Shown here piece by piece: positions 29,709-54,208 of a stretch of 64,000 nucleotides of DNA. The DNA is from a virus. Taxonomy: Duplodnaviria > Caudoviricetes. The stretch spans positions 96,001-160,000 of IMG/VR virus record IMGVR_UViG_3300030330_004274; one strand, given 5' to 3'. The notes under the pieces were generated by a model. The model was not told where the DNA came from. It ran no database searches and saw only the letters and a program-made list of their open reading frames with translations. Made by a program: the position numbers and the translations under genes. The first letter of the stretch is position 1. Each line of letters begins with the position of its first letter.

Positions 29709-30335
29709 ATGGCAAAAGAAATAATAGTAGATTATATACCATTTGAGGTAACACCACAACAAATCAATGAATCTATGAAAAACAATAATGGTAGGTTGGT
29801 TGTTAAGGGTGTGTTACAAAGAGCAGAAGCAAAAAATCAAAATGGTAGAATCTATCCCAAAGAAACTTTGATGAGAGAAGCAAAAAAATATGCAGAAATT
29901 CAAATCAAAGAAAGAAGGGCATTAGGAGAACTCGACCATCCAGATTCTTCTGTTGTTAATCTAAATAATGTATCACACAATGTATTAGAAATGCATTGGA
30001 AAGGTGATGATTTGGTTGGTACTGTTGAAGTACTTGGAACACCTGCAGGAAACATCTTAAAAGAATTATTTAAATCAGGTATTAAACTTGGTATTTCATC
30101 AAGAGGATTAGGTTCAGTAAAAGAAATATATGAAGATGAAAGTGATGCAGTAGAAGTACAACCAGATTTTGAATTGATTGCATTTGATTTTGTATCAAAT
30201 CCATCCACACACGGAGCATTCTTATCACCAACAAATGAAGGTAGATTAAATGAAGGTGTTGGAACAAGAGATGGTGTGTGTTGTCACGATTGTAAAATTG
30301 AAAACATAATCAACGATATATTCAGAGGAGAATAA
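29709..30335 (+). CDS. Prohead protease (T4 gp21-like)
   Basis: NQNGRIYP, ALGELDHP, GISSRGLGS and DFVSNPS motifs. ATG 29709 has AGGAG at 29696. Confidence 0.95.
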   Translation: MAKEIIVDYIPFEVTPQQINESMKNNNGRLVVKGVLQRAEAKNQNGRIYPKETLMREAKKYAEIQIKERRALGELDHPDSSVVNLNNVSHNVLEMHWKGDDLVGTVEVLGTPAGNILKELFKSGIKLGISSRGLGSVKEIYEDESDAVEVQPDFELIAFDFVSNPSTHGAFLSPTNEGRLNEGVGTRDGVCCHDCKIENIINDIFRGE

Positions 30336-30336
30336 A

Positions 30337-30669
30337 ATGGATTATAAAAAAATGATGGGATATGGTGATAAAAAGAAAGTTACCAAAAAAGAATCAAAAC
30401 CTAAACAAAATAAAGTATTAGAATCCATTAAAGAAGAGTTTGGATATAAAAATAATTTAAAAGAAGTAGGTGCTGCCCCACAATATAAAAAATTTGTAAA
30501 ATCAATAGATAAAGAAAGAGATAAAGTTGGAAGAGAAACTTTAAAATTTGTTGATTTATTAAGAAAAAAAGGATTAACTGATGCAGCAGATGATTTGTTG
30601 GATAGTTACAAAAAAAATATTGTTAAATTTGGGTTAGAAGTTAAAAAAATTATGAGAAAGATAATATAA
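30337..30669 (+). CDS. Hypothetical protein (putative head internal)
   Basis: GAGGAG SD, IKE/LKE motifs. Confidence 0.6.
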   Translation: MDYKKMMGYGDKKKVTKKESKPKQNKVLESIKEEFGYKNNLKEVGAAPQYKKFVKSIDKERDKVGRETLKFVDLLRKKGLTDAADDLLDSYKKNIVKFGLEVKKIMRKII

Positions 30670-32177
30670 TGCCTTCATCGTCAAAATCACAACAAAGGTT
30701 TTTTGGAGTTGTGAAAGCGATGCAAAAAGGTGAAATGCCTAAAAAAGGTGAAGCAGGTAAACTTGCTAAAACAATGAGTAAAGATGATGTTGATGATTTT
30801 GCTTCAACGAAACACAAAGGGAAACCAGAAAAAGTGAAACAAGAGACAAAAGTTAGACAATTAATTAGAAAAATGGTTCGTGAAACTATGACAGAAATTG
30901 ATGAAGCTGCTAAAAGAGATTATAAAGCAGAATACAAAAAGTTTCAATCATCTACTAAATCTAAAAAATACAGAGCAGAATTAAACAAATACAATAGACA
31001 AAAAGGAACTTATGGAAATGGTGATGGTAAAGATGCATCACATAAAGGTGGGAAGATTGTAGGATTTGAAGCAGAATCAAAGAATAGAGGAAGAGCTGAA
31101 AAGAGTAGATTGAAGAAAGAAGGAAAACTCAACGAAAAACCAAAAGTTCAAAGATATGTAGTAGGACTTGACAATGGTGAAGTGATGAGTGGAGACAAAT
31201 CAGTAACTGAAAAAAGAGCTTTACAAATAATGTCAAGAATCTCTAAACGGTCTGATGGTTGGGTTAATCCATTTATGATTGGTGTGGAGGCTTGGAATGG
31301 AACTCATCCAAAAAGTAAAGGTAAACCACATAAAATGAATAAAAAGAAAATTATGGTTAAAGAAGGATTGGATTTAAAGAAACTTGAAACTGCTATAAAA
31401 GATTTTCAAAACAAAATTAAAAAACAAGGTAGAGTTACCAATGCTAGAGATGAAGAACATTTAAAACAATTGATTAAAGTTTACAAACAAATGGGTGGAA
31501 GAAAAATTAAAGAGGCTTGTCAAAAAGGATACAAGACACATCCAACTCGTAAAACAAAAGAAATGTTTGGTAAAAGGTATCGTAATTGTATTAAGGCAGA
31601 AGATAAACTTAAAGAGGGTTCTGATACCTTTGTTAATATCTTGAACAAATTTGGATTCAAAAAAGGTGCAAGAGATTGGGGTGGACATCAGTTCTTTGTT
31701 CATAAGAGTAAAGATTTATACGCAACATACAATCCAAGTGGTAGAAGTATAGTTATTGAGCCAAAACGAGGTGGTAAACCTGTATTTGATTCTGCTAGAA
31801 GTAATTTTTCTATTAGAGCTTTGTTAAATTATTTACAATCACCTAAAAATAAATTTGTAAGTACAGAAGGAAAACTTACAGAATCACAACAAGTGGCCAA
31901 AACCATTCTACAACAATTAGGTGGTAATAGATTTATTGCTATGACTGGTGCAAAGAATTTTGGTTCAAGTAGAAATAGTTTACAATTTAAGATAGGTAGA
32001 AACTCAAAATCAATATCGCATGTCATAATAACTTTGAAATCTTCTGATTTATATGATGTGGAGTTTATTAGAATGAGAGGTACAAGTAGAAAAGTAGTTA
32101 AAAAGGTAAAAGGTGTATATGCAGACCAACTTGGTACAATGTTTAAAAAATATACTGGTATGAATGTGAGATTGTAA
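30669..32177 (+). CDS. Modular basic protein (putative protease-processed internal polyprotein)
   Basis: Several small domains separated by KLNE, MVKE, KIKE, KLKE, KLTE. One module is HNH-like (GDGKDASH...SKNRGR). Confidence 0.6.
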   Translation: MPSSSKSQQRFFGVVKAMQKGEMPKKGEAGKLAKTMSKDDVDDFASTKHKGKPEKVKQETKVRQLIRKMVRETMTEIDEAAKRDYKAEYKKFQSSTKSKKYRAELNKYNRQKGTYGNGDGKDASHKGGKIVGFEAESKNRGRAEKSRLKKEGKLNEKPKVQRYVVGLDNGEVMSGDKSVTEKRALQIMSRISKRSDGWVNPFMIGVEAWNGTHPKSKGKPHKMNKKKIMVKEGLDLKKLETAIKDFQNKIKKQGRVTNARDEEHLKQLIKVYKQMGGRKIKEACQKGYKTHPTRKTKEMFGKRYRNCIKAEDKLKEGSDTFVNILNKFGFKKGARDWGGHQFFVHKSKDLYATYNPSGRSIVIEPKRGGKPVFDSARSNFSIRALLNYLQSPKNKFVSTEGKLTESQQVAKTILQQLGGNRFIAMTGAKNFGSSRNSLQFKIGRNSKSISHVIITLKSSDLYDVEFIRMRGTSRKVVKKVKGVYADQLGTMFKKYTGMNVRL

Positions 32178-32410
32178 TGATTAAACTAAAAGATATATTA
32201 ATAGAAAAAACAGTTAAATACAACGAAAAAGATTGGAAGAAATATAACAGTATGGTTAAACGAAATAAACTTGTTGCATTCCAAACTGCAAATGGCAGAC
32301 AATTTACTTGGAGTGATGATAGTGATAAGGATGGAGTTTGGGGTATTGACCAAGATGGTGGAGACCACGATTTTACACACGATGAAATATCTCACATATT
32401 AATATTTTAG
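32177..32410 (+). CDS. Hypothetical protein with MIKLKDILIE leader
   Basis: Leader family, TAATG coupling. Confidence 0.65.
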   Translation: MIKLKDILIEKTVKYNEKDWKKYNSMVKRNKLVAFQTANGRQFTWSDDSDKDGVWGIDQDGGDHDFTHDEISHILIF

Positions 32411-32419
32411 GAGAGAATA

Positions 32420-32713
32420 GTGATTATTAAACTAAAAGACATATTAACAGAAAAGAAAAAAATGGACCAAAAGTATTTGGATAAAATACATAAGTTGACT
32501 AAATACAATAATCATACCGAATCAAGAATATTTGTTGCTACACTTGTTGGTGATAAAAAATTAATGAAAGCATATGAAGGATTAAAAGCAGTACAAGACT
32601 ATATGGGAAGAGCAAATGAAATTATTAAACCAAGAACATACTTAGATTTAAAATTAAAAGATGCTATAGAAAGAAAATTTTTAAATTCAGCAGAAATCTG
32701 GGGATTACTATAA
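32420..32713 (+). CDS. Hypothetical protein with MIIKLKDILTE leader
   Basis: GTG start, AGGAG SD. Confidence 0.65.
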   Translation: MIIKLKDILTEKKKMDQKYLDKIHKLTKYNNHTESRIFVATLVGDKKLMKAYEGLKAVQDYMGRANEIIKPRTYLDLKLKDAIERKFLNSAEIWGLL

Positions 32714-33297
32714 TGATTAAATTAAAAAAAATATTAGAAGGAACTTGTGGATATGGTGAGAATGGTGAACTTGGTGAAGAACCAGCAGGTCCTCATTTAA
32801 TTAAAAAGAAAAAAATAAAAGAATTTGATGCTAAAATGCAAAAAAATCATTTCCTTAATCTAATTAAACAAGAAATAGAAAGTCTTAAAGGTCAAATCGC
32901 ATATGCTAAAGATAAGGTTAGATATAAAGGAACACCTGATTGGGAAAAGAAAGAATTTAAAGGGGTTTTAAAAGATTTATTTAAAAAATTAAAAGATTCT
33001 GAAAAACATTATAAAAGAGTTCAGAAACTTAAAGAAGAAAAACTTACAGAAGGAAAGTTTCAAATGAAAGGTAAGTATTTATATATGCCAAGTGGTGAGG
33101 TATCATCAATACCAACTCATCGTGATAGGGATGCAATTGTTGTTGGTATTAAATATAACCAATTTAAAATTTATATGGATGGAACAAAACCATATGCATA
33201 TGGTTCAAGATATGATAAAAGATTTAATAATACAAAAGATTTAGTTAAATGGTTAAATGATTCAAAAGCTAAATATATAGGAATAGATAATAAATGA
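32713..33297 (+). CDS. Hypothetical protein with MIKLKKILE leader
   Basis: Leader family, internal KIKE and KLTE. Confidence 0.65.
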   Translation: MIKLKKILEGTCGYGENGELGEEPAGPHLIKKKKIKEFDAKMQKNHFLNLIKQEIESLKGQIAYAKDKVRYKGTPDWEKKEFKGVLKDLFKKLKDSEKHYKRVQKLKEEKLTEGKFQMKGKYLYMPSGEVSSIPTHRDRDAIVVGIKYNQFKIYMDGTKPYAYGSRYDKRFNNTKDLVKWLNDSKAKYIGIDNK

Positions 33298-33845
33298 AAC
33301 TTCAAGATATAATAAAAGATATAGAATTAGGTAAAGTTTATACTGATAAAGATAAACCACCTTTTAAAGTAAATGAAGTTTCTTTAAAAAGATGGAAAGT
33401 TTATGTTTCAGGTCAATCAGAACCACTTACTCTTTTAGGTAAAGATGCAAAATCTGTTAAACAATTGGCATATCAAATGATACAGAATAGTAGTGTAAGA
33501 GTAAGAAAAGTTGTTAGAGAAGGATTAGATGAAGTTGGGGATATGGATAGACCTCAAGGATTTTCATCACCAGAAGCAAAAAAAGTAATTGATTCAGAAT
33601 TAAAAGATTGGGCAAAAGATTTAAGAAAAGTTCAAGGTAGAGTTGTAAAAACTTGGATGTCAAAAGCTAAAAGTGGTGTTATTGATTACTTTGATTTAAT
33701 TAGAGGATTACAAACAGGTGATGCGAGAAGAGCTCATCCATATGAAGTAGATTTTTTAATGAAATTATTAACTAAAGATAAAATTATAAATAGATTTAGA
33801 AGTTACTTTGGTGGTAAAAAAGGTAAAGCTAGTAGAACTAAATAG
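33294..33845 (+). CDS. Hypothetical protein (MKLQDIIKDIE leader)
   Basis: ATGA overlap with upstream gene. Confidence 0.65.
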   Translation: MKLQDIIKDIELGKVYTDKDKPPFKVNEVSLKRWKVYVSGQSEPLTLLGKDAKSVKQLAYQMIQNSSVRVRKVVREGLDEVGDMDRPQGFSSPEAKKVIDSELKDWAKDLRKVQGRVVKTWMSKAKSGVIDYFDLIRGLQTGDARRAHPYEVDFLMKLLTKDKIINRFRSYFGGKKGKASRTK

Positions 33846-33853
33846 AGGAAATA

Positions 33854-34147
33854 ATGGCAAAAATTACAAATCAACATTTATCAGATAGATTAGATTGTAT
33901 TGAAAAAAGATTACCAAATGGTGAACTTAAAGAAATGCATGAAATGATAAAAGAAATAAAGGAGATTTTATTAGACCCTGAAGATGGTATTGTTGTAAGG
34001 GTAAATAAAAATACATATTGGAGAAAAGAATTGGACGCAGATGAGTTTAAAGCATTATTAAGATGGAAACAAGGTGTAACACATGCAATGTGGGTAGTTT
34101 ATTCAGCCGTGTTGGGAATATTAGTTAAATTAATATTTTGGAGTTAA
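33854..34147 (+). CDS. Coiled-coil protein with C-terminal TM helix (XhlA/holin-like architecture)
   Basis: Hydrophobic tail AMWVVYSAVLGILVKLIFWS. Confidence 0.5.
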   Translation: MAKITNQHLSDRLDCIEKRLPNGELKEMHEMIKEIKEILLDPEDGIVVRVNKNTYWRKELDADEFKALLRWKQGVTHAMWVVYSAVLGILVKLIFWS

Positions 34148-34150
34148 TGA

Positions 34151-35044
34151 ATGGCATTAATTGATAAAAAAAGTACAAAAACAATAAATGAAGATAGTGG
34201 AAAATATACTGGTACTTCCAAGTTGATTAATCTTGGTAAAGGGATAGAAAATTTCACTACACCATCATTATTAGATAGAACACGACCTGGTTTAAGTGAT
34301 ATAAAAAAAACTTTGGATAAACCTACAGGTGATATTGATAAAAAACCAGCATTTAATAAAATAGATAAAATAGATACTATTAAAAAACCACTTATTATGA
34401 AAGAACCTGTTGATAAAGGTAAATTAGTAAAACCTTTACCAAATAAGAAACCAATAAATACAGAATCAAATTTACTTAACTTTCCATTACCAGAAATTAA
34501 TAAAAGAAATCTTAACCAAAGTGTTCATTTAGGTACAAATGGTGAGATAGAACCTGGATATAGTAGATTGGATTTAGTACAAGATACAGAAGCAGATTTT
34601 GATACAAAAACTAAAATGATAAGTACCTTTACTAAACCACAAATGGAAGAAATTAAAAATTTACAAAAACCGACAGCTGTAATAGATAAAAATATGAAGG
34701 AAACTACAGAAAAACCATTGGGTAATCCAAAGAAAGATTTAGAAGTTGGAAAAAATAATTTAACAACTAATTTTAATACTCCCAAAGATGATAAAATTGG
34801 TAAAAATAATTTAACAAGTGATTTTAATCCATTAAAGCCAACAATTGGTGGTAATAACTTAACAAGTGATTTTAACAAATCAACAATAAAAATTGGTGGC
34901 AACAACTTAACAAGTGATTTTAATCCATTAAGACCTGCAATTGGTCAAAATAATTTAGGAAGTAATTTTAGTGTTCCAAAAAATGATATTGGAACTAATA
35001 ATTTAACAAGTGATATTGATACATCATTAAAATACAAACCATAG
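34151..35044 (+). CDS. Low-complexity protein with C-terminal IGxNNLTSDF repeats
   Basis: Six 16-17 aa repeats. Confidence 0.65.
   Translation: MALIDKKSTKTINEDSGKYTGTSKLINLGKGIENFTTPSLLDRTRPGLSDIKKTLDKPTGDIDKKPAFNKIDKIDTIKKPLIMKEPVDKGKLVKPLPNKKPINTESNLLNFPLPEINKRNLNQSVHLGTNGEIEPGYSRLDLVQDTEADFDTKTKMISTFTKPQMEEIKNLQKPTAVIDKNMKETTEKPLGNPKKDLEVGKNNLTTNFNTPKDDKIGKNNLTSDFNPLKPTIGGNNLTSDFNKSTIKIGGNNLTSDFNPLRPAIGQNNLGSNFSVPKNDIGTNNLTSDIDTSLKYKP
34745..35030 (+). repeat. Coding tandem repeat (~48-51 bp x6)
   Basis: AA(T/C)AA(T/C)TTAACAAGTGAT-like cores, all in frame. Confidence 0.75.
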
Positions 35045-35053
35045 GAGACAAAA

Positions 35054-35635
35054 ATGGCAAAGTTAAAAAATATACTACAAGAGGTGTTTGAAGACACACC
35101 AAAAGTAGATAAATTCAAAGTTGTAGAAGGTGTTAGAAACTTTGGTATTGTTGGTAAACAACTTTATAACAACAATAACATCGTTGAAGTTGCCAAACAA
35201 CTATCAGAAATAGCAGAATCTGCACATAACCATATTCTTGGTGAACAAGATGATTGGTTTGATAAGATTTCAGTAAACAAAAATATGAAAACATTAAAAG
35301 GTAGTGTGGTTGAATTTCAAAAAGCTGCTAAAGAAGCACATCAATTGAATCAACGAATGACTGCATTGTATGAAGACATAGGACATGTATTGAATCGTTA
35401 TTATGATATTGATGAAGCAGTTGACCACATTGATGATAAAGAGGCAAATACTAAATTTGATGATTTAAAAGATAAAGACATTGATAATGATGGTGATACA
35501 GATGATTCAGATGAATATTTACACAAAAAATTAGGAACTGTTGCTAAAAAAGATGAATCAGTAAAACCAAGATTGAAAGATGTTGGGGGTGTTGTTGGAA
35601 TCCCATCGCTTGGAGCAATGATTAAGGGTAAATAA
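35054..35635 (+). CDS. Putative head protein with EF-hand-like motif
   Basis: MAKLKNILQE leader, DKDIDNDGDTDDSDEYL. Confidence 0.6.
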   Translation: MAKLKNILQEVFEDTPKVDKFKVVEGVRNFGIVGKQLYNNNNIVEVAKQLSEIAESAHNHILGEQDDWFDKISVNKNMKTLKGSVVEFQKAAKEAHQLNQRMTALYEDIGHVLNRYYDIDEAVDHIDDKEANTKFDDLKDKDIDNDGDTDDSDEYLHKKLGTVAKKDESVKPRLKDVGGVVGIPSLGAMIKGK

Positions 35636-35961
35636 TGGATTTACTTCATCATTTAACACATCTTTTAATCTATAGTGCTCTTTTGTGGCAAATAGTTTTA
35701 GGATGTTACATATTATTGATATGGGTTTCTAAAAATATTAAATTTACACAGTCTCCTGTTCTTAATATTTCAGAAACAACAAAAAGTGGTTCTGTAATTG
35801 AAGAAAAAAAAGTAAAAAAAGATTTAGGACCCATTGAAGTAGATGTAAAGAAAAATGTAGTAATGGACACGAAATCAGATGAGAGTAGTGTTAAGTTAGA
35901 TGAAAAAATTAAGGGTAAAGTAAAAACCCAAAAAGATAAACTAAAAAAACTAAGAGGTTAA
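35635..35961 (+). CDS. Single-pass membrane protein, putative actin partner
   Basis: N-terminal TM. C-terminal IEVD.K...KGKVK..KDKLK.LR motif shared with 53825. Confidence 0.65.
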   Translation: MDLLHHLTHLLIYSALLWQIVLGCYILLIWVSKNIKFTQSPVLNISETTKSGSVIEEKKVKKDLGPIEVDVKKNVVMDTKSDESSVKLDEKIKGKVKTQKDKLKKLRG

Positions 35962-35962
35962 T

Positions 35963-37021
35963 ATGGCTAAGGGATTAGATTGTGGAACAAGTTATTATAT
36001 AACAGCCACAGAAGATAGTATAAAAAAACAAAGAAATGTATTCTTAACAGTTGACGGTGATGCAAATCAAGTTAAACGAATGTTAAAAAGACAAAGAATA
36101 CCTTTCGTAGAAAAAGCAGGTAAAGTTCATATCGTTGGACAACACGCTTTTAATTATGCACAAATATTTAGTACAACAGATTTAAAGAGACCTATGTCTC
36201 AAGGATTATTGAATCCTAAAGAAAAAGATGCTCTACCTGTATTGAATGCTATTATAGGTGAGTTGATTGGAAAAGCTAAAGGTAAAGAAACTTGTGTTTA
36301 TTGTGTACCTGCTAAACCAATCGACCAAACAAGAGAAGTTTCTTATCACGAAGATGTATTGAAACAGATTATTGAAACATATGGATACGATGTAAAAGTT
36401 ATAGAGGAGAGTGTTGCTCTCGCCTATGAAGGACTCGTAGATAATGATTTAACTGGTATTGCTATATCTATGGGAGCGGGAATGTGTAATATATGTGTGA
36501 TGTATCAAGGGATGAGTGCACTCTCCTTTTCTGTAGCAAGAGGTGGTGATTGGATTGATGAAAATGTAGCATCGGATTGTGGTGTTACAAAAGCAAAAGT
36601 AATTTCAATCAAAGAAAGTTCAAGTAATTTAGATTTAACGAAAAGTGCAATAAATGATATTTATAATGAGGGAAGTGATGAGTACAATATAATTAATGCC
36701 ATTCGTTCTTATTACGGAGCATTAGTCAATTACTTGTTGACAAACCTAAAACATCAGTTTGAAAACGCTGAAAGTGTACCAAACTTCCCAAATGCAATTC
36801 CAATTGTATTTGGTGGTGGAACATCATTGGTTAAAGGTTTTATGGAAGTAGTAGGGGAACAATTTAATCAAGATGAGTTTCCTATACAAGTTAAAGAATT
36901 TACATTAGTCGAAGATGCTCACACAGCAGTCGCAAGAGGTTGTTTGAGTGAAGCACAATTAATTGAAGAAGAGGAGAATGAAGATGAAAATCAAGAAGAG
37001 TCATCTGAAGGAACTGATTAA
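35963..37021 (+). CDS. Actin-fold ATPase (MreB/FtsA superfamily, volactin-like)
   Basis: Phosphate-1 GLDCGT, connect-1 IEESVA, phosphate-2 ISMGAGMCN, ARGGDWID, adenosine GGGTS, connect-2 AVARG. Confidence 0.85.
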   Translation: MAKGLDCGTSYYITATEDSIKKQRNVFLTVDGDANQVKRMLKRQRIPFVEKAGKVHIVGQHAFNYAQIFSTTDLKRPMSQGLLNPKEKDALPVLNAIIGELIGKAKGKETCVYCVPAKPIDQTREVSYHEDVLKQIIETYGYDVKVIEESVALAYEGLVDNDLTGIAISMGAGMCNICVMYQGMSALSFSVARGGDWIDENVASDCGVTKAKVISIKESSSNLDLTKSAINDIYNEGSDEYNIINAIRSYYGALVNYLLTNLKHQFENAESVPNFPNAIPIVFGGGTSLVKGFMEVVGEQFNQDEFPIQVKEFTLVEDAHTAVARGCLSEAQLIEEEENEDENQEESSEGTD

Positions 37022-38261
37022 ACTTTCTATTGCAGAGGCAATATGGGAACAAGAGAATGAGGAAAAACCACAACCTCCTGCACCTCCAAAAGAAAAAGAG
37101 GATGAAAAACCTATGACTAAAATAGATGATAATCCTTTTTCTAAAAAAGATGATATAGAAGAGATTGATTTTAAAAGTAAAGAAGCCTTTCAAAAATATA
37201 AAGCAAAACATAAAATGAGAGGTTCGACTAAAGTAAATATCGCTGGAAAAGAAACTACTGTTGATAAGGCAAGTGGTAAAAAGAAAAAAGAACCTGAAAT
37301 GGATGCAGGTGGTCCTTCTTATGCAAATGTACCAAAAGGTGCTAAAACTTCAAAACAAGCTAAACAAATGTCAAAGATAGAAAAAGATATGGAAAAAGCA
37401 GTGAATGATGCAAATGAAAAAATGGCATTTGACCAAGTGCCAGGTATTCGTATAAAACAAATTACAAATGCAGAACAAGATGTTATTAGACACGACCATA
37501 TAGATAAAACACTTAAGGCTTTAGAAAAAGCTGGTAGTAATAAAGTTGATGCATTTAAATCATTAGGTGATGCATATAAACAATCAGAAAAAGATAGGAA
37601 TGCACAATATAAAAAAGATAAAGAAAAATTGGGTGATAAAAAGGCATCATCAAACTTTTATGATAATATTGAAAAACAAAAAAGAATAGGTTTTCAAATG
37701 CAAAAACTTTTAGGTAAAACAAACTTTGAGTTTGATGATATAAAAGAATCCACAAGAAGAAGACATACCGTAAAAGAAGTAAGAATGTGGATGAAAAAAT
37801 TAGAAGAGAATCGTTATAAAAGAGTATATAATTCAGATGCTCGTAGAGTTGCTTGGATGGTAAATAACGAAGGTAGAAAATTAGACGAAATGCCAATTTC
37901 TATGAAAAAGAAATGGACAAAGGCTCAATACGGAAGAGAAAGATATTTGGCAAAAGAGTTTTTAAGAGCACAAAATGTAATGGAACAAAAAATAAGAGGT
38001 GTAATTAGACAAATAGTGGCAGAAGAAATTCGTCATACTAATGCAAGATTCTTATATGTTCCTAAAAACGATATTAAAAAAGTTCAAACAATATTAAAAC
38101 GAGGAATCCAAAAAGGTAAAGTTGAAGTTGATAATAAACCAAGTTCAAAAGAAAGAGGATTTTATCGAATTACAGTTGAAAAACAAAAATTTAATGATAT
38201 TGTAGAGGCATTAATGTTGAAAAGAATTAGTGTAAAAACAATAGCAAGAGGAAAAGCGTAA
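36984..38261 (+). CDS. Hypothetical modular protein with MKIKKSHLKELI...IAE leader
   Basis: GAGGAG SD at 36971-36976 lies inside the acidic tail of the actin gene, favouring ATG 36984. Confidence 0.6.
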   Translation: MKIKKSHLKELIKLSIAEAIWEQENEEKPQPPAPPKEKEDEKPMTKIDDNPFSKKDDIEEIDFKSKEAFQKYKAKHKMRGSTKVNIAGKETTVDKASGKKKKEPEMDAGGPSYANVPKGAKTSKQAKQMSKIEKDMEKAVNDANEKMAFDQVPGIRIKQITNAEQDVIRHDHIDKTLKALEKAGSNKVDAFKSLGDAYKQSEKDRNAQYKKDKEKLGDKKASSNFYDNIEKQKRIGFQMQKLLGKTNFEFDDIKESTRRRHTVKEVRMWMKKLEENRYKRVYNSDARRVAWMVNNEGRKLDEMPISMKKKWTKAQYGRERYLAKEFLRAQNVMEQKIRGVIRQIVAEEIRHTNARFLYVPKNDIKKVQTILKRGIQKGKVEVDNKPSSKERGFYRITVEKQKFNDIVEALMLKRISVKTIARGKA

Positions 38262-38278
38262 CAAACAAAGAGGTTAGT

Positions 38279-38518
38279 ATGAAAAAAAGAAAAAACTTTA
38301 GGAAGAAAAGACCTAAAGAAAGGTTGGCAGGGTTACAAGTAAAAGTATATGATAATAATGTTGAAAAGGCATTGAAACAATTAAAAAGAAAAATAAAAAA
38401 TTCTAACCTAATGTTAGATTTAAAAAACAAGGCTTATTACAGAAAACCATCAGAAATTAAAAGAGAAAAAAAGAATTTAGCCGTTTTAAGAAGTAAATAT
38501 CAACAAGCAAAAAATTAA
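38279..38518 (+). CDS. rpsU: Phage-encoded 30S ribosomal protein bS21
   Basis: V.V..NNVEKALKQLKRK......L...K....Y.KPS..KR signature. Confidence 0.9.
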   Translation: MKKRKNFRKKRPKERLAGLQVKVYDNNVEKALKQLKRKIKNSNLMLDLKNKAYYRKPSEIKREKKNLAVLRSKYQQAKN

Positions 38519-38560
38519 TAAAAATTATTAAAAAAAATTAACTTTTTTTGTTACTTTGGT

Positions 38561-38570
38561 ATATTTATAT
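38561..38570 (+). promoter_or_regulatory. Late-promoter-like motif ATATTTATAT
   Basis: Heads the scaffold-capsid transcript. Confidence 0.65.
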
Positions 38571-38584
38571 ACACAAACCACAAT

Positions 38585-38651
38585 ACACCGTCCTATTATT
38601 TTTACGGTGTCTAAATATAACTTAACGATATTAAGTTTCCTAATAAACTTA
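38585..38651 (+). promoter_or_regulatory. Structured 5' leader of the scaffold/capsid operon
   Basis: Stems ACACCGT/ACGGTGT and AACTTAA/TTAAGTT, with an alternative TAAGTTT/AAACTTA. Confidence 0.45.
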
Positions 38652-38683
38652 TTCCAAAATAAAAAAATATATGGAGAAATCAA

Positions 38684-39826
38684 ATGGGTGATTTATTAAA
38701 AGAAGCCATTGCAGATGCAAAAGCAGTTAGAGAAACAGCTTTACAGAATGCAAAAATGGCGTTAGAAGAAGCATTTACACCTCAATTGAAATCTATGTTG
38801 TCTGCTAAACTAAAAGAAGATGAAGAAGCTGAAGAGGGCGAACACGATACTGAAGAGGGTTCTTATATGGAAGATGAAGAAGCTGAAGAAGGTCACGATA
38901 CTGAAGAGGGTTCTTATATGGAAGATGAAGAAGCTGAAGAAGGTCACGATACTGAAGAAACTTACGAAGAAGATGAAGTCGAAGAAGATGATGAAGTTCC
39001 TGCAGCTGATGGTGAAGAAGACGATGACGATGATGATGAGGATGAAGATGAAGCCGAAGAAGGTGACCTCGATTTAGAAGCAGTCATTAAAGAACTTGAA
39101 TCTGAATTAGAAGATGATGAGGAAGTTAATGAAGATGTTGAAGAAACAGATAATGCATATGATGAGGATGCTGAAACAGCCGAAGGTGGTGAACCTATGG
39201 GTGAAGGTGAAGAAAAAGAAGAGGATGATGATGTTGAAATTGATGAATCTCTTTTCAATGAAGAGGATTTAGGCAATGGAAAACCAGAAGAAACTGATAA
39301 TGCTCATACAGAAGAAGGTGAAGAGGACATTAAAGAACAATCTAAATCTTCTGAAATTGGTAAAGGTGATAATAAAGGTAATTATGCATCTGGTGCCGAT
39401 GAAGAAGACCCTGGTAAGGGAGAACAGTTCAAGAAAGTTAAAATGGAATCTATTAAATCTGAACTTAAAGAGTACAAAGAAGCAGTTAAATTCCTTAAAG
39501 ATAAACTTCACGAGGTGAACATTTTGAATGCTAAATTGTTGTTTACAAACAAATTGTTTAAAGCGTATAGTTTGAATAATAATCAGAAATTAAAAGTGGT
39601 CGAAACTTTTGATAGAGCTCAAACTACCCGTGAAATTAAATTAGTGTATAGTACATTAGCTGAACAGTTCGGTGATAATGGTGCTATTACAAGAAAAAAA
39701 TCAATTACTGAATCAGCGAGTTCTGCTGTGAGTTCAACTAAACCTTCTAAAGCATCACGAAAAGTGATTACTGAAGAAACTAAAGTTGCTAACAGGTTTA
39801 AAAAACTTGCTGGTATCATTAAGTAA
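38684..39826 (+). CDS. Prohead scaffold/core protein (gp22-like)
   Basis: Very acidic, coiled-coil ends, directly upstream of the major capsid gene. Confidence 0.85.
   Translation: MGDLLKEAIADAKAVRETALQNAKMALEEAFTPQLKSMLSAKLKEDEEAEEGEHDTEEGSYMEDEEAEEGHDTEEGSYMEDEEAEEGHDTEETYEEDEVEEDDEVPAADGEEDDDDDDEDEDEAEEGDLDLEAVIKELESELEDDEEVNEDVEETDNAYDEDAETAEGGEPMGEGEEKEEDDDVEIDESLFNEEDLGNGKPEETDNAHTEEGEEDIKEQSKSSEIGKGDNKGNYASGADEEDPGKGEQFKKVKMESIKSELKEYKEAVKFLKDKLHEVNILNAKLLFTNKLFKAYSLNNNQKLKVVETFDRAQTTREIKLVYSTLAEQFGDNGAITRKKSITESASSAVSSTKPSKASRKVITEETKVANRFKKLAGIIK
38843..38958 (+). repeat. 51-bp perfect tandem repeat (2 copies plus partial) in the scaffold gene
   Basis: CACGATACTGAAGAGGGTTCTTATATGGAAGATGAAGAAGCTGAAGAAGGT starting at 38843, 38894 and 38945 (partial). 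Confidence 0.9.
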
Positions 39827-39843: not shown

Positions 39844-41586
39844 ATGTCAAACTATGTAAATGATGCACTTTTAGATGCATCTCCTTATAAAAAACAACAA
39901 GAAGAAGCTAAAGCTCTCGTTAATAAATGGGATAAAACTGGTCTTCTTGATGGTTTGAATGAGGATTTTCAAAAAAGTGGAATGGCTATCATGCTTGAAA
40001 ACCAAGCAAGACAGTTAATTTCAGAGAACTCTGCGACAGGTGGTACAGGTGGTACTGGTACTGCTACTGCTGCAGGTTCTGAAGAATGGTCTGGTGTTGC
40101 TCTTCCATTGGTTAGAAGAATCTTTGGTGAGATTGCAGCTCAAGACTTTGTATCAGTTCAACCAATGAATTTACCATCTGGTCTTGTATTCTATTTAGAC
40201 TTTAAATATGGTAAATCTGTTGAAGGATTTGGTAAAAACTCAAGTGTTCCTGGCGGTTCTGTAGATTCACTTGGTGGTAAAACTGGTCCTAACAATCCAT
40301 CAGGTTCGTCTGCTGGTGTAGATGGATATGGTGTTGGTGGTCTATATGGCGAAGGTCGTTATGACTACTCAATTAATGAGCAAATAAAAACAGGTTTAGT
40401 TTCAGACCAAAATGGTACACTTGCAACTGGTGAGTTTATTACTGGTTCAGTTACTTACAAAGATATTAACTTTAATCAAGAACATTCTGCTTCTTTAGCA
40501 GCAAGTAAATTAGTTAAAGTATCTGTTTTAGGTTCTGATTTATCAAACGCTGACTTTAAAGCAGTAAGGTCTTTCAACCTTACACAATCTGCTGATGGTG
40601 GTACTGCTATGACAGATGGTAACTATAAAGTTCTTCCACAGTTCACATCATATGATGGAACTAATGTAAACTTTATCGTTTCTTGTTCTGGTCAAAGTGT
40701 ATTTGCTGCTGGTGGTGCAAATGCTGCTAATGAGTTTAACACTGGTTCTGTTATCTTTAGTCAACAACCAACTGAAGCTTCAAGAGGTGATTTTGAGGAT
40801 ACAGTAGGTAATGCGACTGCTGATACATTAGCAATACCTGAAGTTGATTTAAATCTTAAATCTGCTGCTATCGTTGCAAAAACAAGAAAACTAAAAGCTG
40901 TATGGACACCTGAGTTAGCTCAAGACCTTAATGCTTATCATTCTGTTGATGCTGAAGCAGAATTAACATCAATGTTATCTGAATATATTTCTTTAGAGAT
41001 AGATTTAGAAATCCTTGATATGTTAATTGCAGATGCTGTTACTACAGACTTCTGGTCAGTAACTCCTGGTGAGGACTATGATGGTTCTGGTACTGATGAA
41101 GGTGCTTGGAACATTACAACTTTCTATGGTACAAGATTCGAGTGGTATCAAACTCTTGTAGCGAAAATCCAAAAAGTTTCTAACGAAATTCACAGATTAA
41201 CGCTAAGAGGTGGTGCTAACTTCGTTGTTGTATCTCCAAAAGTTGCTACAATCCTTGAATCTATACCTGGATATATGACTCAAACTGATGGTAATAAAGC
41301 TAGTTTTGCTGCTGGTGTTCAATCTATCGGGTCTTTACAAAACAGATATACTGTTTATAAAAATCCATATATGACTGAAAATCAAATATTAGTAGGGTTT
41401 AGAGGTTCAAACTTCCTTGAAACAGGTGCGGTTTATGCTCCATATGTTCCATTGATTATGACTCCTCTTGTGTATGACCCAAGTGACTTCACTCCAAGAA
41501 AAGGCGTGATGACTCGTTATGCTAAGAAAATGATTAGACCAGAGTTCTATGGTAAGATTGGTATTAAAGATTTAAATTTAGTGTAA
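39844..41586 (+). CDS. Major capsid protein (T4 gp23-like)
   Basis: VQPMNLPSGL, AKTRKLKAVWTPELAQDLNAYH, YAPYVPL and FTPRKGVMTRYA motifs. Confidence 0.97.
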   Translation: MSNYVNDALLDASPYKKQQEEAKALVNKWDKTGLLDGLNEDFQKSGMAIMLENQARQLISENSATGGTGGTGTATAAGSEEWSGVALPLVRRIFGEIAAQDFVSVQPMNLPSGLVFYLDFKYGKSVEGFGKNSSVPGGSVDSLGGKTGPNNPSGSSAGVDGYGVGGLYGEGRYDYSINEQIKTGLVSDQNGTLATGEFITGSVTYKDINFNQEHSASLAASKLVKVSVLGSDLSNADFKAVRSFNLTQSADGGTAMTDGNYKVLPQFTSYDGTNVNFIVSCSGQSVFAAGGANAANEFNTGSVIFSQQPTEASRGDFEDTVGNATADTLAIPEVDLNLKSAAIVAKTRKLKAVWTPELAQDLNAYHSVDAEAELTSMLSEYISLEIDLEILDMLIADAVTTDFWSVTPGEDYDGSGTDEGAWNITTFYGTRFEWYQTLVAKIQKVSNEIHRLTLRGGANFVVVSPKVATILESIPGYMTQTDGNKASFAAGVQSIGSLQNRYTVYKNPYMTENQILVGFRGSNFLETGAVYAPYVPLIMTPLVYDPSDFTPRKGVMTRYAKKMIRPEFYGKIGIKDLNLV

Positions 41587-41636: not shown

Positions 41637-41671
41637 GAAAAACCCCTACTTTTTGTGGGGGTTTTTCTTTT
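41637..41671 (+). terminator. Rho-independent terminator after the capsid gene
   Basis: GAAAAACCCCTAC-TTTTT-GTGGGGGTTTTTC followed by TTTT. Confidence 0.85.
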
Positions 41672-42819: not shown

Positions 42820-45800
42820 GTGGCTATTAACATTAAACCAGATTCGCCTAATTCAATTTTAATTAGTGGTAGTAATAACCAAATTGAAGTTAAAACTTCA
42901 AATAGTAGTGCTAATAATATTACCATATCTCAAGGTGAAACCAAAACAGTAAATGTAACTGCACTTGGACCTCAAGGGTCTCAAGGAATACAAGGTGTTC
43001 AAGGATTACCTGGTAATATAACTGGTTCGGTTACTAATATTACTGCAAGTGGAACTATAATGGGATATGATAACTTTTTGTTAAGAGATGGAGGCCCAAC
43101 TGGAGACAAAGTCGTTGATATATTAAATTCATCCGATGATGGTCTTATAAGAGTTTATCAAAATAATTCAGTTAAAGCAAGAATACACGGAAATGGAACA
43201 TCATATTTTGATGGTGGAAATGTTGGTATAGGTACTGGTCATACTGTACCGAAGGAATTAACCGTAGAAGGTGACATAAGTTCAAGTGGTGCAATCAATA
43301 CTTTATCACACATAACCGCAAGTGGAAACATAAGTTCAAGTGGTATTTTATACAATGATGAAATATATTCTGATGGGGGAGTAAGAGTTCAACTTACCGA
43401 TGGTACTTATCAAAGAGCAGTTGTACCAAGTACCTCTGATAATATTCAGTTTGGTGATGCCGGTGTTGATGATTTAAAATTTAAAAATGCTGCAGGTAAT
43501 GCGGTTGTAATTAAAGAAAGTGGAAATGTTGGTATTGGAACACAAACTCCAACAGAAAAATTACAAGTTGTTGGTAATATTCTTACAAGTGGAGCAATCA
43601 AATCATCACATATAACTTCAAGTGGAAACATAAGTGGTAGTAATGGAAACATATTAGGATTTAATTCAGCCTCATTTAATTACATATCAGCATCACACAT
43701 TGATACTAATGCAGATTCATTGAGTATTGGTGGTGTATCAATGAATAAAACACTTTTACAAAATTTAAAACGAGGTTTTTCATCAACTTCTTTAACTGCA
43801 GTAGGAAAATCTGCAACAACTGGTTCTTTTTTAATTACTGGTTCATTAGAAGTAGATACAGGTGATAGAACTGTAACAATCGGTCCTATATCAAATGGAG
43901 CATCGGCCGATATAAGTGTTGCAGGTGGGGCTTTATTCTTACAATCTGATTCAGGTAATAATATTCAAGCAGGTGGCCCAATATGGCCATCTTCAACTTT
44001 AACAAAAGATTTAGGTTCATCAACAAGATTATGGAGAAGTCTTTCTGTTCAACATATATCTGCAAGTGGAACAATAAGTGGTAGTAGTGGTGATATAGTA
44101 GGATTTAATAATATAACTGCTGAGGGAGATTTATTTGTTAAACAATACATCAAACACAAAGGTGATGATAATACATTCATAAACTTTACTGATAATAGGA
44201 TTCGATTTAATGCTGGTGGTATTAATTTTTTGAGTTTAGACCAAGATGGTAGTGCTCCCTATCCTGCTACAGTTAATAATGGTGGTAATAGAATCAACTT
44301 TAGAGTTGTGGATAGAAATACCGACCTTCTTCTAAAAACTGATTCTGAATTATTTAAGGTTAACTTATATTATGCAGGTAATCAAAAATTAGAAACAACC
44401 ATAGGTGGTATTAATGTAACTGGTCACATAACTGCAAGTGGAGATATAAGTTCAAGTGGAACTACAACTACTGAAGATTTAATTGTTAAGGATAATGCAA
44501 CAGTTGCTGGTAATTTAGATATTGCTGATACGATATATCATACGGGAGATTCAAATACAAAGATAAGATTCCCTGCTGTCGATACGATTGCTTTTCATAC
44601 TTCTGGTGATGAACAAATGAGAATTGATTCAGCTGGAAACATAACCGCGAGTGGAAACATAACTGCAAGTGGTGATTTAAATATAACAAACATAACTGCA
44701 AGTGGAACTGGTACATTTAATAAATTAGAAGTACATAATCCAAGCCCAAAATTAATATTAAAAGATACAACTGATGATGACAATCATTCTATACAATTTA
44801 CAGACCCATCAAATGTAGTGCATTATCAAATAGATTCTGGAAATGATATTTTTAATTTTAAATCTGTTGTAAACAATCCAATGTCTTTTTGGACTAATAA
44901 TACCGAAAGAATAAGAATTTTAAATGATGGAAAAGTTGGTATCGGAACATCAAGTCCAACAAAACCATTACAAGTAGCAGGTGATATAAGTGCTAGTGGT
45001 GATTATTTTTCACCTGAGTTCTCATCAATTGGAGGACATATAACCGCAAGTGGAAACATCAGTGCAAGTGGAACAGGTACTCATCATTTTGGTGGCACCG
45101 TCCAATTAGATGGTAGTGGTTTAGTTATTCAAAATGATTCTACTACAGAAATTACTTTTACTGGAACGAATAATTCAAACATTACTTCACAAGGAAATCT
45201 GTATCTCAAAGCTGGTTCATCAAAGAAAATGTACTTTGGTGCAAACAATACTGATGAACAAGTTGCAATAGATACAAATGGATTTGTTGGTATCGGAACA
45301 ACAAGTCCAGATGCTCCTTTACATATAAGTAGTTCTGATAATGTAGCAGCAATATTTGGTTCAACTGATTCTCTTTCCTATATATCTTTTCTGACACCAA
45401 CTACTGATGATAAGAATAGTGTTAGAGTAGGAGCCGTTGGAAATCAATTACAATTTATAGCAGGTGGTTCAGAAGCTGTTAGAATTAATGGTAGTGGAAA
45501 TGTCGGTATCGGAACAACTGCTCCAACAAAAAAATTACAAGTAGCAGGTGATATAAGTGCGAGTGGTGATATTCATTTAAATAATACTAAAGCTTTAAAA
45601 ATACAAAATGCAGCTGGAACTTCAACTCAAGTTGTAAAAGTTGATTCTGGTGATGATATTTATATTGGACATCCTAATTTTGATAACATATATGTACAAG
45701 GTAGTGGTGGAACTATTATGACACTACTTGGTACTGGTAATGTTGGAATCGGAACAACAAATCCAACTGTCAAATTGGATGTAGAAAGTAGTGATGATTT

Positions 45801-53709: not shown

Positions 53710-53825
53710 TGCCAAACAAAGCAGCTAAATTAAGAAAACAAGAAAGAAGAAAGAAGAATAAAATATTAGAGAAAACTGGTAGAACACCAGCTCAAATAAA
53801 AAGATTTAAAAAACGAGGACAATAA
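53709..53825 (+). CDS. Small very basic protein, 38 aa (absent from ORF track)
   Basis: MPNKAAKLRKQERRKKNKILEKTGRTPAQIKRFKKRGQ, TAATG-coupled on both sides. Confidence 0.65.
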   Translation: MPNKAAKLRKQERRKKNKILEKTGRTPAQIKRFKKRGQ

Positions 53826-54208
53826 TGGCTGTTCAACAAATAACACATAAAAAAATTATAAAGTATGATACTTCTAATCCTAACTATAAGGAAACACCTA
53901 AACCTAAACAAGAGGTAAGTGGTAATGTTAGAGAGGATGAAGATGTTTATGGTGAAAAAAAACATACTTACACACCCGAACCAAATGGTAATTTACAAAT
54001 GGAACAGATGATGGGTAAGTTGATGAATAAATTAGATAACTTTGATTCACCAAGTCAAACAGGTACAAAGGCAATAGAAGTAGATATAAAAAGAGAGATT
54101 GCTATAGGTAAAGTTGATACGAGTGCAGTCCAATCACAAGAATTTAAAGGTAAAGTTAAAAATAAAAAAGATAAACTAAAAGCATTGAGAAGAAGAAATG
54201 GCCGTTAA
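53825..54208 (+). CDS. Hypothetical protein, C-terminal paralogue of 35635
   Basis: AIEVDIKREIAIGKVDTSAVQSQEFKGKVKNKKDKLKALR. Confidence 0.7.
   Translation: MAVQQITHKKIIKYDTSNPNYKETPKPKQEVSGNVREDEDVYGEKKHTYTPEPNGNLQMEQMMGKLMNKLDNFDSPSQTGTKAIEVDIKREIAIGKVDTSAVQSQEFKGKVKNKKDKLKALRRRNGR

Follow-up and report, generated by a model that had tools for sequence, protein, structure and literature searches.

The window, by which we mean the whole analysed stretch of 64,000 nucleotides, covers positions 96,001-160,000 of a 168.8-kb (~169 kb) viral genome (IMG/VR record IMGVR_UViG_3300030330_004274) and carries a head module of T4 type, in which the genes of portal, prohead protease and gp23-type capsid protein follow in this order (Table 1). 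Microcystis phage Mel-JY01 and Flavobacterium phage immuto are the closest isolates (~50% identity). The phage is an abundant marine one and has the look of a lytic virus of T4 type. Here a hyperplastic array of 9.5 kb fills the interval between the protease and capsid genes, and its members have capsid-targeting-like N-termini; the same interval of the nearest cultured relative holds three genes only. Within this array lie the two genes considered below, which code for a small membrane protein, hereafter TM108, and an actin-like protein. Both reading frames (108 and 352 aa) were found exactly where the original prediction had placed them, and so were all the motifs listed there for the larger product: MAKGLDCGT, QRNVF, RPMSQGLL, PAKPID, YHED, GIAISMGAGMCNIC and FSVARGGDWID. 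A terminator-like hairpin is present at 41637-41667, 3' of the capsid gene, and no tRNA genes were found within the 64-kb window. Since the T4 late-promoter word TATAAATA occurs in many intergenic gaps as its reverse complement and is not positioned upstream of the genes in question on the coding strand, no claim on the type of promoters is made.

Table 1. Genes and sequence features considered here, in coordinates of the window
Feature	Position	Strand	Basis or remark
Terminase gene	24561		Head module
gp20 portal gene	26178		Portal_T4 5e-73 (Pfam)
gp21-type prohead protease, upstream limit of the expanded head-gene interval	29709..30335	+	Pfam Peptidase_S77 6.2e-29; phrog_207 1.2e-53
TM108, predicted single-pass membrane adaptor, 108 aa	35635..35961	+	ORF, hydropathy, conserved position upstream of actin
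Codons of the TM helix (residues ~9-31) with conserved S..LWQ motif	35659..35727	+	Kyte-Doolittle; alignment A2
Codons of the conserved C-terminal tail of TM108 (residues 67-108), predicted actin-docking peptide	35833..35958	+	Conservation; complex model
AAGAGG, Shine-Dalgarno sequence for the actin gene, within the last TM108 codons	35952..35957	+	Read from sequence
Predicted volactin-family actin-fold ATPase, 352 aa, acidic C-terminal tail	35963..37021	+	Pfam PF25216, AF2, Foldseek, BLASTP
Acidic scaffold-like gene, 380 aa	38684-39826		Before capsid gene
gp23-type major capsid protein, downstream limit of the expanded interval	39844..41586	+	Pfam Gp23 8.5e-80
Soluble 127-aa protein of the neck gene cluster with TM108-type C-terminal tail, candidate second adaptor	53825..54208	+	Tail HMM
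Codons of the shared tail motif in ORF 53825 (residues 84-122)	54074..54190	+	BLASTP, HMM

The 352-aa protein matches the Pfam family Volactin (PF25216) over profile positions 1-321 of 321 with an E-value of 2.3e-75 and 254.5 bits against a cut-off of 35, and the match was repeated in a Pfam search of the whole genome. Its identity to the Haloferax gibbonsii volactin orthologue is 34% (BLASTP, E 4e-69), while similarity to bacterial MreB gave only E 0.008 over 189 residues. Membership in the MreB/Mbl family was rejected, with PF06723 scoring 24.6 bits, below its cut-off of 27, and the PHROGs collection gave no match for this protein. The profile search of PDB ranked MamK first (4e-16), followed by BeeR, MreB and FtsA. 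In the maximum-likelihood tree, for which the outgroup was MreB only (not ParM, FtsA or MamK), a branch with support 100/100 divided 48 volactin-type rows from the 2 rows of MreB; the actin of the window fell into a phage clade (support 100/99) situated outside the haloarchaeal one, with Planctomycetota as the nearest cellular rows at weak support. The profile matches, the tree and BLASTP agree that the protein is a volactin, as had been proposed from its motifs, and does not belong with MreB, ParM or FtsA. The AF2 model (pLDDT 94.2, pTM 0.92) has the top Foldseek matches MreB, MamK, BeeR, crenactin and actin, which are all polymerising actins. This grouping, and not one with ASKHA enzymes, had been anticipated, and an enzyme akin to Hsp70 or sugar kinases was rejected, as neither is found among the top Foldseek neighbours. 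Based on sequence comparison and the predicted fold, the protein genuinely belongs to the volactins, one branch of the actin superfamily, and we infer that it polymerises. In NCBI, two close homologues (P0075 and P0104) are binned as 'Candidatus Pelagibacter sp.' and 'Candidatus Woesearchaeota archaeon', labels that we judged unreliable for phage-like contigs.

The actin fold is accompanied by the phosphate 1, phosphate 2 and adenosine motifs of the nucleotide site, and residues D6, G8, T9, E149, S169, G171, G173 and G285-G286-T287 are invariant. The phosphate-2 motif reads S-x-G-A-G across the volactin family and D-x-G-x-G in actin and MreB, and because of this family-wide replacement of Asp by Ser the ATPase chemistry of volactins may differ from that of actin and MreB. 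The phage actin has no membrane-binding helix of its own and ends with an acidic C-terminus. N-terminal TM segments were registered in 0/150 representatives, and a TM-actin fusion, which could have served as a Rosetta-stone link, was thereby rejected.

The gene directly before the actin gene was expected to encode a protein with a single TM segment, and it does: TM108 has one N-terminal TM helix (the best 19-residue Kyte-Doolittle window starts from residue 11 with a mean of 2.16), followed by a variable linker and a conserved basic C-terminal tail. Because the charges flanking the helix are -1 on its N side and +2 on its C side, the arrangement fits an N-out/C-in topology. Conservation is highest in the tail, whose core reads K.DE..KGKVKTQK.KLK.LR: identity is 0.70 over the tail and 0.85 over its core, compared with 0.42 for the linker, and mean column identity in the TM helix is 0.59 in alignment A2. 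The start codon of TM108 overlaps the stop codon of the preceding gene (TAATG), and only 1 nt separates TM108 from the actin gene, whose ribosome-binding site is placed so as to suggest translational coupling of the two. No Pfam family, including DUF7139, and no PHROG family matched TM108, and in ESM Atlas it matched virus-only hypothetical clusters. The neighbour of volactin in Haloferax, on the contrary, matches DUF7139 at 4e-36. Judging from their layout (membrane anchor, linker, basic C-terminal helix), the two proteins appear to be analogous, not demonstrably homologous.

Coupling of the actin to a membrane partner, the central element of the original prediction, gained support from modelling of the complex. 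The tail of TM108 combined with the actin gave a score of 0.68 and the best of 3 controls 0.00; the prediction runs agreed in at least 90% of contacts, partner pLDDT was at least 64, and the predicted interface was made by residues 77-107. This score was reached by 58/80 solved complexes and by 2/110 mismatched pairs, counts that are only approximate here because analysis-made alignments were used. The model supports docking of the TM108 tail on actin, even if a general tendency to put helices into the grooves of actin could also produce such an interface. That the tail is merely a short amphipathic stretch of basic character was counted against the adaptor-actin reading.

The same tail was found once more in this genome. 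For the tail of the TM108 family an HMM was made from which the window's own sequence had been left out; among 2181 six-frame ORFs of the 168.8-kb genome it matched the neck-cluster protein (ORF 53825) at E 1.6e-12, the runner-up having E 0.16, and BLASTP aligned the tail of this protein to TM108 residues 67-107 with 22/41 identical positions. This protein is conserved at 78-88% in 193 IMG/VR stretches (alignment A4) and has no match in PHROGs or ESM Atlas. Applied to distant loci, the narrow tail HMM recovered same-clade proteins only and was replaced by enrichment of the C-terminal regular expression [KARE]L..[LM][KRI][KRGAS], with other ORFs of the same loci used for comparison. In 80 distant phage loci it was found in 27/61 ORFs ending no more than 200 nt upstream of the actin gene and in 5/600 others (Fisher p 3e-26), and in bacterial volactin loci in 10/23 upstream ORFs and 0/455 others; p-values of this kind count related sequences and some spurious ORFs, overstate independence and are indicative only. 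In haloarchaea, the volactin loci carry a membrane protein of the DUF7139 family, the CdpA-like neighbour of volactin, whose tail is analogous. Tails of TM108 type are thus seen at the ends of genes preceding that of volactin in haloarchaea and Planctomycetota as well as in distant phages. Because the tail recurs both on ORF 53825 and upstream of distant volactin genes, adaptor and actin look like a conserved paired module. The distant phage loci also contain a class of soluble adaptors of ~200-250 aa with an uncharacterised N-terminal domain that could bind DNA.

Conservation of the membrane gene beside actin in related phages, on which the original prediction was to stand or fall, was confirmed in ~70 related IMG/VR loci, where a TM gene precedes the actin gene, in ~50 of them with a gap of -1 to 3 nt. 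In ~20 close relatives the pair is split by one to several genes. Homing endonucleases were expected as the inserts and rejected: these are small genes with capsid-targeting-like N-termini. Even in phage L164, with actin identity of just 41%, a protein with N-terminal TM segment is encoded 4 nt upstream and ends with ...LRNLRK; two distant huge-phage homologues from GenBank have no TM gene upstream of actin. Scanning of the collections with the 10-sequence alignment A3 detected volactin in at least 562 IMG/VR stretches. With 1056 clusters at 90% identity, and 1025 member sequences in the cluster of the best match alone, the actin gene of this lineage ranks among the commoner genes of marine phages. 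No description of phage volactins or of membrane-tethered phage volactin filaments was found in the searchable literature.

What had been observed from the letters of this DNA is therefore confirmed, and its interpretation is supported in part. We consider it fairly probable, from sequence and models taken together, that the 352-aa volactin and its cognate adaptor TM108, encoded by apparently coupled genes, give rise to filaments captured by the membrane; the phage thus probably builds membrane-tethered actin filaments. According to the proposed mechanism, both genes would share transcription and translational coupling with those of the head, and TM108 would insert into the host inner membrane with a basic tail of ~77 residues facing the cytoplasm, the terminal ~30 of which would dock along subdomain IA and into the IA/IIA groove of actin. 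As the equivalent groove on ParM, at the barbed end, is used by ParR, it would be by its tip that an ATP-dependent filament is captured or nucleated at the membrane. Soluble ORF 53825, bearing the same tail, could link another cargo to the same filaments. The tight packing of the pair with head genes is what suggests its late expression. Its position in the head region is weak evidence for a role in head assembly, because the surrounding array is hyperplastic and consists of genes tagged for capsid targeting. Any assignment of the cargo, or of a role in virion assembly and positioning, DNA handling or control of host shape, would be speculative.

The last of these roles leads to a different reading, in which the membrane-tethered actin changes shape, size or division of the host, enlarging or stabilising the infected cell with no direct contact to virions. 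Cellular volactin governs the rod-to-disk change in Haloferax (PMC10869688), and the phage pair is located among accessory rather than core head genes and is missing from the nearest cultured relative, as is typical of accessory functions. Against it stand the location of the second tail-bearing protein's gene within the neck cluster and the arrangement of the actin gene, which runs in the direction of the late structural genes and is closely packed among them; we regard this reading as quite unlikely. Filaments of ParM/AlpC type, moving or anchoring replicating or packaging phage DNA through adaptors linked to DNA or the packaging machinery, with virion parts and cell shape not involved, seem decidedly improbable. 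An adaptor-plus-actin gene pair with predicted IA/IIA groove docking does parallel ParR-ParM, a prophage actin with adaptor, AlpC, supports viral DNA replication (PMC4446434), and the soluble adaptors of distant loci may be DNA-binding. However, no DNA-binding domain could be recognised in TM108 or ORF 53825 with Pfam and PHROGs, TM108 is predicted to be an integral membrane protein, a phage of lytic T4-like appearance would not need partition, and the sequence is that of volactin, not ParM or Alp. Highly improbable is a non-polymerising ATPase, chaperone or nucleotide-dependent switch, adjacent to a membrane gene through operon packing: many actin-fold proteins are indeed non-filament enzymes and the phosphate-2 Asp is replaced, but filament formers take all the top places among neighbours by structure and by sequence, with no Hsp70 or sugar kinase there, the founding member of the family polymerises in vivo, and synteny, the cross-phylum tail motif and the controlled complex prediction speak against chance adjacency.

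Membrane-captured volactin filaments being the preferred reading, one can also suppose that the short basic helix at the C-terminus serves volactin filaments of phages, bacteria and archaea alike as a universal end-binding peptide. This phage would carry it twice, once on the membrane anchor and once on the soluble adaptor encoded among the neck genes, and a virus-built actin system would tether filaments to the membrane by their tips and couple virion intermediates to them. This extension we hold to be doubtful; if true, a lytic phage would for the first time be seen to possess an actin-based cytoskeleton for assembly or positioning, and tip anchoring of Haloferax volactin via HVO_2016 would be explained. 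To our knowledge, the known phage cytoskeletons are the tubulins PhuZ and TubZ and a few segregation-type actins; phage volactin belongs to a different actin family, so far characterised only in one archaeon. If both adaptors operate as proposed, possession of a cytoskeleton that orders the infected cell is not confined to jumbo phages but extends to lytic phages of ordinary size. The module supplies a concrete candidate, open to testing, for the volactin-binding factors by which filaments become attached to membranes, and, being composed of a 352-aa actin and a peptide of ~40 residues, it is small enough for direct expression and assay.

Several known systems share some of these features. The closest solved structures to the phage actin are MamK, first in the profile search and at the top of Foldseek as well, and MreB, at the top of Foldseek. 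These form membrane-associated actin filaments using partner proteins, MamJ/MamY and RodZ, respectively; the phage actin has no magnetosome or cell-wall context and, again, no membrane helix of its own. ParR binds the barbed-end groove (IA/IIA) of ParM. The systems ParM-ParR-parC and AlpC/AlpA of prophage CGP3 likewise combine an actin-like filament with an adaptor for which insertion of a C-terminal helix into the IA/IIA groove is proposed, but have no significant sequence relation to phage volactin, and their adaptors bind DNA, whereas TM108 is predicted to be membrane-anchored and its gene precedes that of actin. AlpC is an example of an actin borne by a phage (PMC4446434). The PhuZ tubulin spindle of nucleus-forming jumbo phages, according to two reviews, organises late infection and moves capsids (PMC8314001, PMC7950403); it is a phage-encoded cytoskeleton too, but of tubulin fold and from another lineage (Chimalliviridae) with jumbo genomes, in contrast to the actin fold in a genome of 169 kb described here. 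The nearest parallel by family is volactin itself (VolA, HVO_2015, Haloferax volcanii), which belongs to PF25216 together with the phage actin and forms dynamic filaments contacting the membrane by tips, a behaviour known in cells within the volactin family only for this protein (PMC10869688). Haloarchaeal volactin has a CdpA-like neighbour (PMC12126565), and its gene, like that of the phage actin, is situated just downstream of one whose product, a membrane protein, combines a linker in the cytoplasm with a short element at the C-terminus (in Haloferax HVO_2016, DUF7139). The archaeal partner is larger (~300 aa) and has four TM segments, while that of the phage is a single-pass protein of 108 aa, and the phage system differs also by its viral setting within a T4-type head module and by an additional soluble protein with the same tail. 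Contact of VolA filaments with the membrane by their tips is nevertheless what an adaptor docking in the end groove would produce.

A volactin system is present in an ordinary-sized (169 kb) and very abundant marine T4-like lineage, and assignment of the 352-aa actin of this phage to the volactin family is supported by independent lines of computation. The protein matches all positions (1–321 of 321) of the Pfam profile Volactin PF25216 with E 2.3e-75 and 254.5 bits (cut-off 35). Membership in MreB was rejected, as the Pfam MreB score (24.6 bits) is under the 27-bit cut-off; the FtsA score was marginal. The original prediction, which preferred volactin to MreB on the basis of motifs, is supported in this respect, and every motif it quoted was found in the ORF. 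BLASTP aligned the actin with a volactin orthologue of Haloferax gibbonsii (34% identity, E 4e-69) and with a homologue from Planctomycetota (38%, E 3e-80), bacterial MreB giving E 0.008 only. For the profile built from 37 diverse relatives the nearest solved sequence was MamK (4e-16), followed by BeeR (1.7e-9), MreB (about 1e-7) and FtsA (1e-5). AlphaFold2 modelled the protein with high confidence (pLDDT 94.2, pTM 0.92); the best PDB matches registered for the model by Foldseek are MreB, MamK, BeeR, crenactin, actin and Arps, with no Hsp70 or sugar kinase in the top 50. A maximum-likelihood tree was built from 48 non-redundant family members plus two MreB sequences. A 100/100 branch splits the family from MreB, and the actin and two further phage sequences form a clade (100/99), the haloarchaeal clade standing apart; the backbone is poorly resolved, with phage, bacterial and archaeal sequences interleaved. 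Residues D6, G8, T9, E149, S169, G171, G173, G195-D196, G285-G286-T287 and G326 are among those invariant in the family, and the phosphate-2 position is occupied by Ser throughout volactins, in contrast to Asp in actin and MreB. The C-terminus of the protein is acidic, and no membrane-binding helix of its own was found in it.

Features of the actin locus and of structural genes around it
Feature	Position	Strand	Product or type	Basis
Terminase	24561		T4-type head gene	
Portal	26178		T4-type head gene	
Protease	29709		T4-type head gene	
TM108 gene	35635-35961	+	108 aa	ORF
Actin gene	35963-37021	+	352 aa	ORF
Capsid	39844		T4-type head gene	
Soluble protein with TM108-type tail	53825-54208		127 aa	tail HMM + BLASTP

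Coupling of the actin to TM108, a single-pass membrane protein and its candidate adaptor, is also supported by independent lines of computation. The start codon (ATG) of TM108 overlaps the stop codon of the gene before it (TAATG), the actin starts 1 nt past the TM108 stop, exactly as had been read originally, and the sequence AAGAGG lies inside the last TM108 codons, 6 nt upstream of the actin ATG. The only hydrophobic helix of TM108 (residues about 9–31, Kyte-Doolittle 2.16) has flank charges of −1 and +2, and because of this the 77-residue basic tail is predicted to be cytoplasmic by the positive-inside rule. Across about 70 related loci in IMG/VR, the TM gene precedes the actin within a kept order (193-aa gene, TM108, actin, 432-aa gene, acidic scaffold-like gene, capsid gene), so that the originally noted neighborhood is a conserved one. 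The distance from the TM stop to the actin start is −1 to 3 nt in about 50 of these loci and 60 to 3400 nt in the rest; in the eight wide-gap loci examined, the gap contains one to several small genes, many with MKITKSRLKEIIKEE-like starts. The linker of the TM108 family is variable (identity 0.42), and the C-terminal tail is its best conserved part (0.70, core 0.85; consensus K.DE..KGKVKTQK.KLK.LR). In a phage more distantly related (41% actin identity), the gene 4 nt upstream of actin codes for 85 aa, and its product has a TM helix at the N-terminus and ends in ...LRNLRK.

Complex prediction for the actin and TM108 residues 58–108, made with alignments of actin relatives and of the TM108 family, gave a score of 0.68, the best of 3 controls reaching 0.00; docking of the two proteins is thus predicted by the model. 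Of 80 solved complexes 58 attained that mark, as did 2 among 110 mismatched pairs; these counts apply approximately, since own alignments were used. At least 90% of contacts were shared by three runs, with partner pLDDT of at least 64. Residues 77–107 of TM108 are predicted to face actin segments 15–24, 38–53, 91–101, 132–139, 155–163 and 317–336. Based on secondary structure of the AlphaFold2 model, these segments would lie in subdomain IA, at the base of IB, at the hinge-helix end and in the C-terminal helix, and would line the IA/IIA groove. The interface may reflect a general tendency of the predictor to put helices into actin grooves. Recall of a close homologue is unlikely to account for the result, since no solved structure of a volactin-adaptor complex is known to us. 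The model supports binding of TM108 to actin, short of demonstrating it.

The phage also has a second, soluble protein with the same tail. Its gene belongs to the neck cluster, where it is flanked by an Ad2-like adaptor gene and the sheath gene. The protein was detected among 2181 six-frame ORFs of the genome by an HMM of the TM108-family tail from which the window's own sequence was left out (E 1.6e-12, next best 0.16), and direct BLASTP with TM108 gave 22/41 identities. Neither a TM helix nor a family match was found in this protein, which is conserved (78–88%) in 193 viral stretches and has no relatives in GenBank phages.

The window spans bases 96001–160000 of an IMG/VR virus record that comprises 168,793 bp and is judged 95% complete; G+C content of the window is ~31%, and nearly all genes lie on the + strand. 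Among isolates, Microcystis phage Mel-JY01 and Flavobacterium phage immuto come closest (about 50% identity). The interval between protease and capsid (30337–39826, +) contains 13 genes in 9.5 kb, compared with only three in immuto, and many of them have amphipathic N-termini ending in L/I-x-E, which resemble the capsid-targeting sequences of T4 with a protease site after them. The interval has the look of a hyperplastic array in which cargo genes of the internal-protein type have multiplied, and the TM108-actin pair sits in this accessory array. Placement of the pair in the head-assembly region was originally proposed, and its location among T4-type head genes is confirmed, but location alone is no proof of a role in head assembly. 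Given co-orientation, tight packing and no terminator-like site on the coding strand ahead of the one at 41637, the pair is likely co-transcribed with the head genes.

Shared N-termini in the array are MAKLKNILQE, MIKLKKILE and MKLQDIIKDIE; in relatives L008, L015, L023 and L042 genes between the TM gene and actin have MKITKSRLKEIIKEE N-termini. Two further ORFs belong to the array. ORF 38279-38518 (+, 79 aa), flanked by the 432-aa and scaffold-like genes, is a homologue of the ribosomal protein bS21 of phages (phrog_21469, E 1.9e-8). ORF 33854-34147 (+, 97 aa) is hydrophobic towards its C-terminus (…AMWVVYSAVLGILVKLIFWS) and may encode another small membrane protein of the head region. A single 2972-aa ORF (43060-51978, +) lies shortly downstream of the capsid gene. 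The word TATAAATA occurs 22 times in the window (13 expected), 17 copies being on the − strand, i.e. TATTTATA on the coding strand. Many of the latter fall in short gaps between genes, immediately ahead of structural genes, and TATTTATA (+ strand: 3624, 12142, 22852, 28057, 38562, 41679, 42341, 52006, 55497, 57511, 58122, 59668) is a possible late-promoter element in this lineage.

Word-indexed search matched the actin to 1056 clusters at 90% identity (E below 1e-5). The 120 matches listed are all marine metagenome proteins, 76–97% identical to it, and the cluster of the best match has 1025 member sequences. Exhaustive search of 50%-identity representatives gave 1025 clusters with E below 1e-3, among them 285 with E below 1e-30, and many of the proteins matched carry extra N- or C-terminal regions. 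Family members are encoded in at least 562 IMG/VR stretches, mostly contigs of 40–375 kb, and were confirmed in 433 stretches of GTDB species genomes, the best 80 of which belong to Halobacteria (many Haloferax), Planctomycetota, Omnitrophota, Acidobacteria, Nitrospirota and others. Bacterial contig L166 (6001–8770), with GGDEF/EAL and GatB neighbors, carries two tandem family genes with acidic N-terminal extensions, one starting with a zinc-ribbon-like motif. Among GenBank phages only two, both uncultured huge phages, have a homologue (32% identity); neither has a TM gene upstream of it, and no same-clade relative was found there. Literature search revealed no published description of a phage volactin.

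Quantitative tests of the shared tail spanned phages, bacteria and archaea. The motif [KARE]L..[LM][KRI][KRGAS] was scored in the last 22 residues of non-redundant ORFs, 80 aa or longer, that end within 200 nt upstream of actin, in a distant set of 80 viral loci whose actins are 38–45% identical to the first sequence of the query alignment. It was registered in 27/61 upstream ORFs versus 5/600 other + strand ORFs (Fisher p 3e-26; 3 of the 5 are plainly the same adaptor 2 kb upstream), and in bacterial loci it ends 10/23 upstream ORFs versus 0/455 others; since related sequences and some spurious ORFs are counted, these numbers show, as a sequence pattern and not as independent events, that this tail type is not confined to the clade of the window. 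Its carriers in distant phages form two classes: proteins of 100–125 aa with an N-terminal TM helix, and soluble ones of 190–250 aa, which share a conserved domain at the N-terminus and a FIP-type motif. No Pfam family was found for the soluble class. In L178, L187, L190, L208 and L220 the soluble adaptor upstream of actin has a DLG..VGPGP.W-like N-terminal domain and an ALKALRK-type tail; its middle part is rich in Ala, and it carries the motif EP(L/M)FIP(T/S)G. Upstream partners in Planctomycetota end in ...NLAKLKKLKGGG.

Volactin filaments are reported to contact the membrane by their tips only, and their binding factors were described as unknown (Schiller et al., PMC10869688). In haloarchaea the upstream gene encodes a membrane protein of roughly 300 aa (DUF7139, 4e-36) that ends in an analogous helix, e.g. 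...VVDRIRGLFS, and corresponds to the CdpA-like HVO_2016 described beside volactin by Liao et al. (PMC12126565).
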